Of a stretch of 64,000 bases of DNA, positions 62,949 through 63,296 are shown one piece after another. Made by a program: the position numbers and the translations under genes. Origin of the DNA: Rhodoferax sp. Its GTDB lineage: Bacteria; Pseudomonadota; Gammaproteobacteria; Burkholderiales; Burkholderiaceae_C. The notes under the pieces were generated by a model that saw only the letters and a program-made list of their open reading frames with translations, was not told the DNA's origin and made no database searches. The DNA lies in contig NZ_JAMPXE010000002.1 in the NCBI RefSeq assembly GCF_023701345.1, positions 14,109 through 78,108 on the forward strand. The letters run 5' to 3'. How positions within the stretch are numbered: the first letter of the stretch is position 1; every line of letters begins with the position of its first letter.

Positions 62949-63296
62949 TCAGAACTTGACGATGATGTCTTCGTCGCGCACCACCATCTGGCATGCCAGA
63001 CGCCAGGGTGGCGGCATGTCTTTGGTCTCGGCGTCGGCAATTTGCTGGGTCGTGATCTTGCCAGCCAGCTTCAGCACCAATTTTTCCTTTTCGGTCAGCG
63101 CGACACCGATCGGTGTGGCACCGGAGAGCACAGACACCTGCACCTGGCAGGAACCGCATTCGCCGTTCTCACACTCGGACTCCAGCGGCACGCTGTTGGC
63201 TTTTGCTACAGCAAGCAGCGTTTTGGTATCGCCCGCAACGGCATACACCGTCACGTCCTTCTTCATACGGGGGGAGCTAAAGGTTACGTTGGCCAT
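62949..63296 (-). CDS. 2Fe-2S ferredoxin of FeSII (Shethna protein II) type
   Basis: C-x4-C-x2-C-x51-C. The blocks FSSP, AVAG..TLL.VA..N, LT.KE..VLK..GK and D.PP..RLACQ..V.DED match my recollection of Azotobacter FeSII. Confidence 0.75.
   Translation of the reverse strand: MANVTFSSPRMKKDVTVYAVAGDTKTLLAVAKANSVPLESECENGECGSCQVQVSVLSGATPIGVALTEKEKLVLKLAGKITTQQIADAETKDMPPPWRLACQMVVRDEDIIVKF

Follow-up and report, generated by a model that had tools for sequence, protein, structure and literature searches.

A tail-less FeSII-family ferredoxin encoded directly behind nifK in Rhodoferax and related bacteria

The 64,000-nucleotide stretch of Rhodoferax sp. DNA analyzed here, referred to as the window (contig NZ_JAMPXE010000002.1, positions 14,109 to 78,108), originates from a groundwater metagenome (metagenome-assembled genome, MAG). 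Next to the 3′ part of nifK it contains a gene encoding a 115-amino-acid (aa) protein. This protein is a real adrenodoxin-type [2Fe-2S] ferredoxin of the FeSII (Shethna protein II) family, and it belongs to a subfamily that lacks the C-terminal tail of Azotobacter vinelandii FeSII. The best explanation as a whole, to which we assign a probability of about 0.6, is that the tail-less protein is expressed by read-through and acts as an oxygen-responsive nitrogenase binder. The features of the window that bear directly on this reading are the following.

62949..63296, minus strand: gene encoding the FeSII-family [2Fe-2S] ferredoxin of 115 aa; ATG start at 63296, TGA stop at 62951..62949.
63297..63444, minus strand: nifK–ferredoxin spacer of 148 nucleotides (nt), containing a long, imperfectly paired hairpin that spans about 120 nt (-72.1 kcal/mol, z -5.8).
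63445..64000, minus strand: 3′ part of nifK, encoding the MoFe protein beta subunit; TIGR01286 at E 1.8e-81 for the 184 aa in the window, the gene running off the window end.

The cluster of the ferredoxin is predicted to be bound by C42, C47, C50 and C102, which are arranged as C42-x4-C47-x2-C50 followed by 51 residues and then by the fourth cysteine. When the A. vinelandii FeSII sequence was used as a tblastn query, the ferredoxin gene was the single matching gene in the window (E 3e-32). The gene has a GC content at third codon positions (GC3) of 0.73, and 1122 homologues of its product are present in a set of 5.8 billion proteins. On these three grounds a chance open reading frame (ORF) was rejected. 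An origin as a symbiosis-plasmid gene was rejected as well, the sole match in the plasmid collection being a Methylococcus plasmid with 56% identity.

The family assignment is based on several comparisons. The phmmer search against all PDB sequences returned the FeSII proteins of A. vinelandii and A. beijerinckii with E-values of 1.9e-28 to 1e-26. In the best of these alignments, residues 1-115 of the window protein are paired with residues 1-115 of A. vinelandii FeSII with zero gaps (E 1.9e-28), and 54 of the 115 positions (47%) are identical. The next family in the PDB is a P450-fused ferredoxin domain at E 1.2e-3. Pfam assigns the generic Fer2 model alone (E 3.5e-9), and NCBIfam has no model for the FeSII family. 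With TIGR02007 (fdx_isc), the model of the iron-sulfur cluster (ISC) ferredoxins, the window protein reaches 21.1 bits against a cut-off of 132, and with the YfaE model 22.2 bits against a cut-off of 75. These scores lie far under the cut-offs and the other PDB families match at E 1e-3 or worse, so that an ISC or generic electron-transfer ferredoxin was rejected. Since only 206 clusters match at E <= 1e-3 among 1.84 billion cluster representatives, the FeSII family can be regarded as small and discrete. The first-pass annotation of this DNA had described a 115-aa protein with the C-x4-C-x2-C pattern and 51 residues before the fourth cysteine, located just after nifK and resembling FeSII. The description of the protein is correct in every checkable detail, nifK lies in the expected position on the same strand, and the resemblance to FeSII is real. 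Grouping with electron-transfer or ISC ferredoxins, which the same annotation had named as a refuting outcome, was not observed with phmmer, with the family models or with Foldseek.

The fold leads to the same assignment. The AlphaFold2 model, built on 50 homologues (predicted local distance difference test, pLDDT, 75; predicted template modelling score, pTM, 0.60), contains helices at residues 69-77 and 83-91, which match the FeSII helices hN1 (69-78) and hN2 (84-91). Both helices are predicted within the N-loop between C50 and C102, which has the same length as in FeSII. The hN2 helix is not found in other adrenodoxin-type ferredoxins (Franke et al., PMC11754109). The first 14 Foldseek matches of the model are all FeSII, the best of them being the nitrogenase-bound chain 9cu1_N (E 4.3e-13, template modelling (TM) score 0.73), and the adrenodoxin-type ferredoxins come next with E 1e-5 or worse. 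Adrenodoxin, putidaredoxin and the ISC ferredoxin Fdx share the core fold and the cysteine ligands with the window protein (Foldseek E 1e-5 to 1e-3, TM about 0.55), but they have neither the hN2 insertion nor the FeSII sequence signature. The adrenodoxin-type fold, the cysteine register and the length of the N-loop with hN1 and hN2 are thus common to the window protein and to A. vinelandii FeSII (PDB 5FFI, 8RHO/8RHP, 9CU0-2). Over the whole FeSII family, including the window protein, L28 is invariant and T26 and L27 are near-invariant, and the T26-L27-L28 position is probably of functional importance. Separately, PDB chain 9cu1_N, which represents A. vinelandii FeSII, reads T26-K-K where T26-L-L is expected.

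The best homologues of the window protein are likewise 115 aa long, share 76-92% identity with it and come from Rhodoferax, Polaromonas, Aquabacterium, Sphaerotilus and other Comamonadaceae and Burkholderiales. A scan with six query sequences over one genome per GTDB species identified at least 521 genomes with a relative of the ferredoxin. The loci of the best 80 of these at least 521 genomes, with 70-96% identity, were compared and are labelled L001 onward. They belong to Rhodoferax, Hydrogenophaga, Acidovorax, Aquabacterium, Ideonella, Rubrivivax, Leptothrix, Sphaerotilus, Piscinibacter, Zoogloea, Methylophilaceae, Halothiobacillus and two alphaproteobacteria. Of the 77 loci whose upstream sequence was long enough, 75 have nifK as the adjacent upstream gene on the same strand, separated by a spacer of 4-219 nt. 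The physical tie to the structural nif genes, which had been proposed from the single stretch of DNA, therefore exists and is strongly conserved. The gene order in the most compact clusters (L066, L078 and also the compact L089) is nifH-nifD-nifK-ferredoxin-nifE-nifN-nifX. In Comamonadaceae, Sphaerotilaceae, Zoogloea, Methylophilaceae and Halothiobacillus, genes of the 115-aa subfamily nearly always come first behind nifK.

The two exceptions to nifK adjacency are the alphaproteobacteria Rhodovulum sp. PH10 (L068) and Rhodoplanes roseus (L076). Their 115-aa copies (6001..6345) are 73-75% identical to the window protein and do not adjoin nifK, and the ORFs that were chosen near the two genes gave no Pfam match. 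As these copies nest in the beta-proteobacterial clade and are placed away from nifK, the data suggest horizontal transfer. The Azotobacter gene also has a different setting: the neighbours of fesII are guaB, guaA and a multicopper oxidase gene, and no nif cluster is present there. The 122-aa FeSII orthologues of Amphritea and of an Alteromonadaceae strain are encoded within nif regions. Because the Acidithiobacillus, Amphritea and Alteromonadaceae copies are nif-located and Azotobacter fesII is not, nif linkage is the rule in the FeSII family and Azotobacter is the exception.

The simplest reading of the gene order is that the ferredoxin gene is co-transcribed with nifHDK. No U-run, no terminator-like site on the coding strand and no sigma-54-like site were found in the 148-nt spacer, and its hairpin matches no Rfam family. 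We infer that the ferredoxin would be made by read-through from the nifH promoter, whose position is beyond the end of the window. Owing to the spacer hairpin, its level would probably be below that of NifHDK. The hairpin may lower read-through or stabilize the upstream message. It could represent an mRNA stability or attenuation element, or an inserted or mobile palindromic repeat. Its core recurs after nifK in L007, L013, L027, L048, L050, L052 and L058, and it also occurs near draT, at another intergenic site, in L001/L031, L006, L022, L024, L025, L035, L050 and L052. Among the relatives whose spacer is 46 nt or longer, most have one that folds stably. In 14 relatives the spacer has 4-16 nt, and close relatives such as L003, with spacers of about 10-13 nt, have no hairpin.

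The mechanism that we propose for the ferredoxin as an oxygen-responsive nitrogenase-binding protein starts with the oxidation of its cluster. The helix hN1 (T68-E-K70-E71-K72-x-V-L-K76) would then dock on the NifH dimer at the equivalents of E69 and E112. Docking would interrupt the electron transfer to the MoFe protein and would cover the 4Fe-4S face of NifH. The cluster loop of A. vinelandii FeSII contains the functional residues E41 and D44, and its N-loop is held by the salt bridges D44-K70 and E71-R99; the D44-K70 bridge is there in the reduced state, is broken on oxidation and has been proposed as the redox switch (Franke et al., PMC11754109). The residues R72, N73 and K76 of hN1 bind E69, E112 and N108 of NifH, with R72 and K76 pairing with E69 and E112 (Franke et al., PMC11754109). 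On the other side, hN2 faces the MoFe protein and K63 forms a salt bridge to D204 of NifD (Franke et al., PMC11754109). The FeSII dimer is held by contacts of K53′, R61, R92 and D93, including the pairs D93-K53′ and R92-A122′ (Franke et al., PMC11754109). In the C-terminal tail TGEPGGA, E118 binds R101 of NifH and the carboxylate of A122 is located directly above the NifH 4Fe-4S cluster (Franke et al., PMC11754109).

Compared with A. vinelandii FeSII, the window protein keeps E41, K70, E71, K76, D93 and R99 and has the conservative changes R72K and R92K. To see how general this pattern is, 109 sequences of the clade were compared with 116 Azotobacter-type sequences (from Azotobacter, Amphritea, Neptuniibacter, Alteromonadaceae and others). 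E41, K70, E71, R99 and D93 are near-invariant in both sets. E71 and R99, which form the salt bridge from the N-loop to the core, are invariant in both clades and likewise in a family alignment of 20 sequences. Positions 72 and 76 are always lysine or arginine in the clade, and the window protein has K72 and K76. The NifH of the closest relative (L003) has equivalents of E69, N108, E112 and R101, as judged against an A. vinelandii NifH reference that carries the residues of Franke et al. at these positions. The equivalent of NifD D204 is also kept in L003 (in 'AIRDW'). Because the NifH residues contacted by hN1 and the NifD aspartate are present in this closest relative, a NifH-docking function of the window ferredoxin is plausible. 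On the alignments, the NifH partner residues are conserved generally, and they do not discriminate between the hypotheses.

The same comparison also yields a group of observations that weigh against the binding role proposed here. Position 44 is asparagine in 109/109 clade members and aspartate in 107/116 Azotobacter-type sequences. At position 63 the clade has isoleucine, tyrosine or methionine, and all 116 Azotobacter-type sequences have lysine. At the dimer positions, residue 53 is mostly glutamine and residue 61 threonine or alanine in the clade, while K53 and R61 are near-invariant in the Azotobacter type. All 109 clade members are exactly 115 aa long and have lost the tail. Only 1 of 8 consensus positions of the MoFe-facing helix hN2 matches between the two clades. 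The window protein itself carries D44N, K53Q, R61T, K63I and N73L, ends at F115 and is devoid of the C-terminal TGEPGGA with E118 and A122. This end is exact in 92 of the 116 Azotobacter-type sequences and is replaced by close variants in nearly all others; read-through past the stop codon of the window ferredoxin gene would not encode it. The losses of the tail, D44, K63, K53 and R61 are thus properties of the clade and not quirks of this MAG. The consensus identity between the two clades amounts to 83% in the cluster loop, 80% in residues 92-101, 40% in hN1 and 12% in hN2. Neither the surface that faces the MoFe protein nor the C-terminal plug is conserved in the clade.

The most probable alternative is the full Azotobacter mechanism, in which the oxidized FeSII dimer binds two NifH dimers, recruits the MoFe protein and polymerizes into inactive, O2-tolerant filaments. 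The common family, the N-loop length, the E71-R99 lock, E41, the basic hN1 and the T26-L27-L28 helix all fit it, as do the NifH partner residues and NifD D204 of the closest relative. It does not account for the missing plug, D44N, the hydrophobic residue 63, the lost K53 and R61 and the low identity of hN2. The MoFe-facing elements hN2 and K63 have changed most, yet protection in Azotobacter requires that the MoFe protein binds to the FeSII-NifH unit (Franke et al., PMC11754109). A compensating change in NifD for the loss of K63 was considered and rejected, as the aspartate is conserved in L003. We regard the full mechanism as possible but tentative. Because conservation does not extend to hN2, K63 and the C-terminal plug, it is uncertain whether the window ferredoxin would bridge the MoFe protein into Azotobacter-type filaments. 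The first-pass annotation had claimed that this bacterium uses conformational protection. The FeSII family membership, the nifK link and the NifH-docking residues agree with that claim; the plug, D44 and K63 are missing and hN2 has diverged. With regard to the interface residues, whose inspection it had recommended, E41, K70, the E71-R99 pair and the basic residues 72 and 76 are kept, and the tail, D44, K63, K53, R61 and hN2 are lost or diverged. Azotobacter-style conformational protection may plausibly occur in this Rhodoferax, but several of the Azotobacter-specific elements are absent, and the functional claim is supported only in part.

A neighbor-joining tree of 71 full-length family members supports the clade of the window protein with 79% bootstrap and the Azotobacter clade with 100%. 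As bootstrap support drops to 10-14% where the subfamilies join, the derived state of the tail loss cannot be stated firmly. The nearest cluster outside the clade (P0122, 61% identity) comprises proteins of Acidithiobacillus ferriphilus, Sulfuriferula, Thiobacillus and a Hydrogenophilales MAG, which are 123 aa long.

The genomic neighbourhood in the relatives points to a further possibility. In at least 30 of them a gene encoding a 159-aa rubrerythrin-like protein is located downstream of the ferredoxin gene at a distance of 0.02-3.6 kb (in L001 at 8697..9176), and in L015, L018 and L047 it follows immediately (about 6369..6865). In three further clusters (P0125, P0126 and P0128) the N-terminal 115 residues share 59-62% identity with the window protein, and a C-terminal extension follows them. 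The extension of P0126 matches the Pfam model Rubrerythrin (PF02915) with 26.6 bits at a cut-off of 22.8, and the Joint Genome Institute (JGI) name for this protein is 'rubrerythrin/ferredoxin'. The fused rubrerythrin-like domain shares 37-45% identity with the products of the stand-alone genes. The ferredoxin part of the fusions is closer to the window protein than Azotobacter FeSII is, and the fusions differ from the window protein in carrying the rubrerythrin-like domain. The genomic context of one fusion protein was recovered on a 3.2-kb contig, where its neighbours encode DegT-, SIR2- and Fer2-family proteins. In at least 30 loci a gene for a truncated (bacterial) globin is located divergently upstream of nifH, beside draT (L001 992..1459, L002 1022..1555); this region was seen in the loci of the relatives and lies outside the 64-kb window. 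The associations with the rubrerythrin-like gene and with the truncated globin point to an oxygen-related role, possibly with a modified mechanism.

An alternative suggested by the rubrerythrin-like neighbours and fusions is that the ferredoxin supplies electrons to a diiron O2/H2O2 reductase. It would then act as an electron valve, docking on NifH or on another reductant and passing electrons to the rubrerythrin-like protein, which would reduce O2 or H2O2 near nitrogenase; protection would be achieved by local scavenging, instead of or besides steric locking. Apart from the immediate adjacency in three relatives, the occurrence of both parts in a single polypeptide in the sister lineages P0125, P0126 and P0128 argues for such a valve. 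A C-terminus that is fused cannot provide a free carboxylate plug, in line with the loss of the tail, and Azotobacter FeSII is thought to be able to accept an electron from NifH (Franke et al., PMC11754109). Against it, the rubrerythrin-like gene is missing from the window, where orf118 and orf140 abut at its usual place in relatives, and the loci of Halothiobacillus, Zoogloea and Acidithiobacillus have no rubrerythrin-like gene beside the ferredoxin gene. Moreover, inspection by eye indicates that the rubrerythrin-like protein has only a part of the canonical diiron motif set. We consider this valve unlikely for the window protein. Rated as slightly more doubtful still is the combined proposal that the tail-less clade is a distinct FeSII variant which has kept NifH docking, has a rubrerythrin-like partner and drains NifH electrons into the local reduction of O2 or H2O2, in place of the trapping of nitrogenase in filaments or ahead of it. 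Such a variant cannot use the carboxylate plug, the D44 switch and the K63-NifD contact, because the clade lacks them.

The preferred reading, an oxygen-responsive nitrogenase binder of the FeSII family, has precedents. In Acidithiobacillus ferrooxidans an FeSII homologue is encoded just downstream of nifK, and conformational protection together with nif co-expression has been suggested for it (Levican et al. 2008). The Acidithiobacillus homologue ('fdxD', cluster P0122) shares the order nifH-nifD-nifK-ferredoxin-nifE-nifN-nifX and 61% identity with the window protein, and it differs in keeping the C-terminal tail SGEPGVTL. From A. vinelandii FeSII the window protein differs in length (115 aa compared with 122 aa including the TGEPGGA tail) and in the location of its gene after nifK instead of outside the nif cluster. 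According to secondary citations, the Rhodobacter capsulatus gene fdxD is fesII-like, NifA-dependent and adjoins nifHDK, and its product aids the O2 tolerance of the Mo-nitrogenase. As far as these citations describe it, FdxD is, like the window protein, a nif-linked [2Fe-2S] fesII-like ferredoxin, and its gene is located upstream of nifH instead of after nifK. A 2025 study of a Planctomycetota strain lists an FeSII gene in the nif cluster. The idea of a nif-linked FeSII protector is therefore already known from Acidithiobacillus (2008), from Rhodobacter FdxD (2014) and from the Planctomycetota strain (2025). Protective activity has been shown solely for the proteins of A. vinelandii and A. 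chroococcum (2024 structural paper), and the direct evidence for FeSII-type protection outside Azotobacter is thin. A literature search that did not cover Narehood et al. 2025 returned no description of the tail-less clade as such.

An ordinary nif electron carrier, donating electrons to NifH or to FeMo-cofactor synthesis, is very unlikely: the gene does sit between nifHDK and nifENX in the most compact clusters and was drawn among the 'assembly' genes in Acidithiobacillus (Levican et al. 2008), but the protein does not group with electron-transfer or ISC ferredoxins and keeps the FeSII-specific N-loop, the midpoint potential (Em) of FeSII, -262 mV, is too positive to reduce NifH (Franke et al., PMC11754109), and R. 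capsulatus FdxD (FdD, ferredoxin V) is described in the secondary citations as giving no electron donation to the Mo-nitrogenase in vitro and its deletion as causing no anaerobic diazotrophic defect.

In the compact relatives the ferredoxin gene is followed straight by nifE. In the window the two are separated by four uncharacterized ORFs together with a ParDE pair and a GFA-family gene.

62629..62946, minus strand: orf105, conserved hypothetical; its ATG is 2 nt after the ferredoxin stop, and it follows the ferredoxin gene in 40/73 relatives.
62344..62598, minus strand: orf84, conserved hypothetical; present in 45/73 relatives.
61961..62317, minus strand: orf118, conserved hypothetical; no family match.
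61560..61982, minus strand: orf140 (about 126-140 aa); PF02579 at E 0.026 and 15.3 bits, sub-threshold at a cut-off of 26.3.
60465..61474, minus strand: ParD/ParE toxin-antitoxin pair and a gene of the GFA family (glutathione-dependent formaldehyde-activating-like), inserted after the ferredoxin block and before nifE.
60241..60256, minus strand: sigma-54-like site TGGCAC-N5-ATGCA, 35 nt upstream of the nifE start.
58716..60206, minus strand: nifE, first gene of the nifENX-DUF269-Rop-like-fdxB block (55825..60206).

The products of orf105, orf84 and orf118 have no match in Pfam, NCBIfam or the PDB. The product of orf140 shows a weak, sub-threshold likeness to the NifX/NafY-type FeMo-cofactor binding domain and has homologues in L001, L034, L047 and L061. 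The sigma-54-like site before nifE is the sole good one near the ferredoxin gene. The count of such patterns over the window is not above chance, and the credibility of this site comes from its position alone.

FeSII is the sole structurally understood O2 shield of nitrogenase and is considered for engineering in plant organelles (Franke et al., PMC11754109). A close relative of FeSII, fixed directly behind nifK, is present in hundreds of beta- and gamma-proteobacterial diazotrophs with an aerobic or microaerobic life. If the clade simply acts like FeSII, the known mechanism would mainly be extended to more taxa. A large clade without the plug, D44 and K63 serves as a natural experiment on which features of the Azotobacter protein are essential, and it offers shorter proteins that have co-evolved with their own nitrogenases. 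The pairing and fusion with rubrerythrin-like proteins provide a testable lead for a second protective activity.

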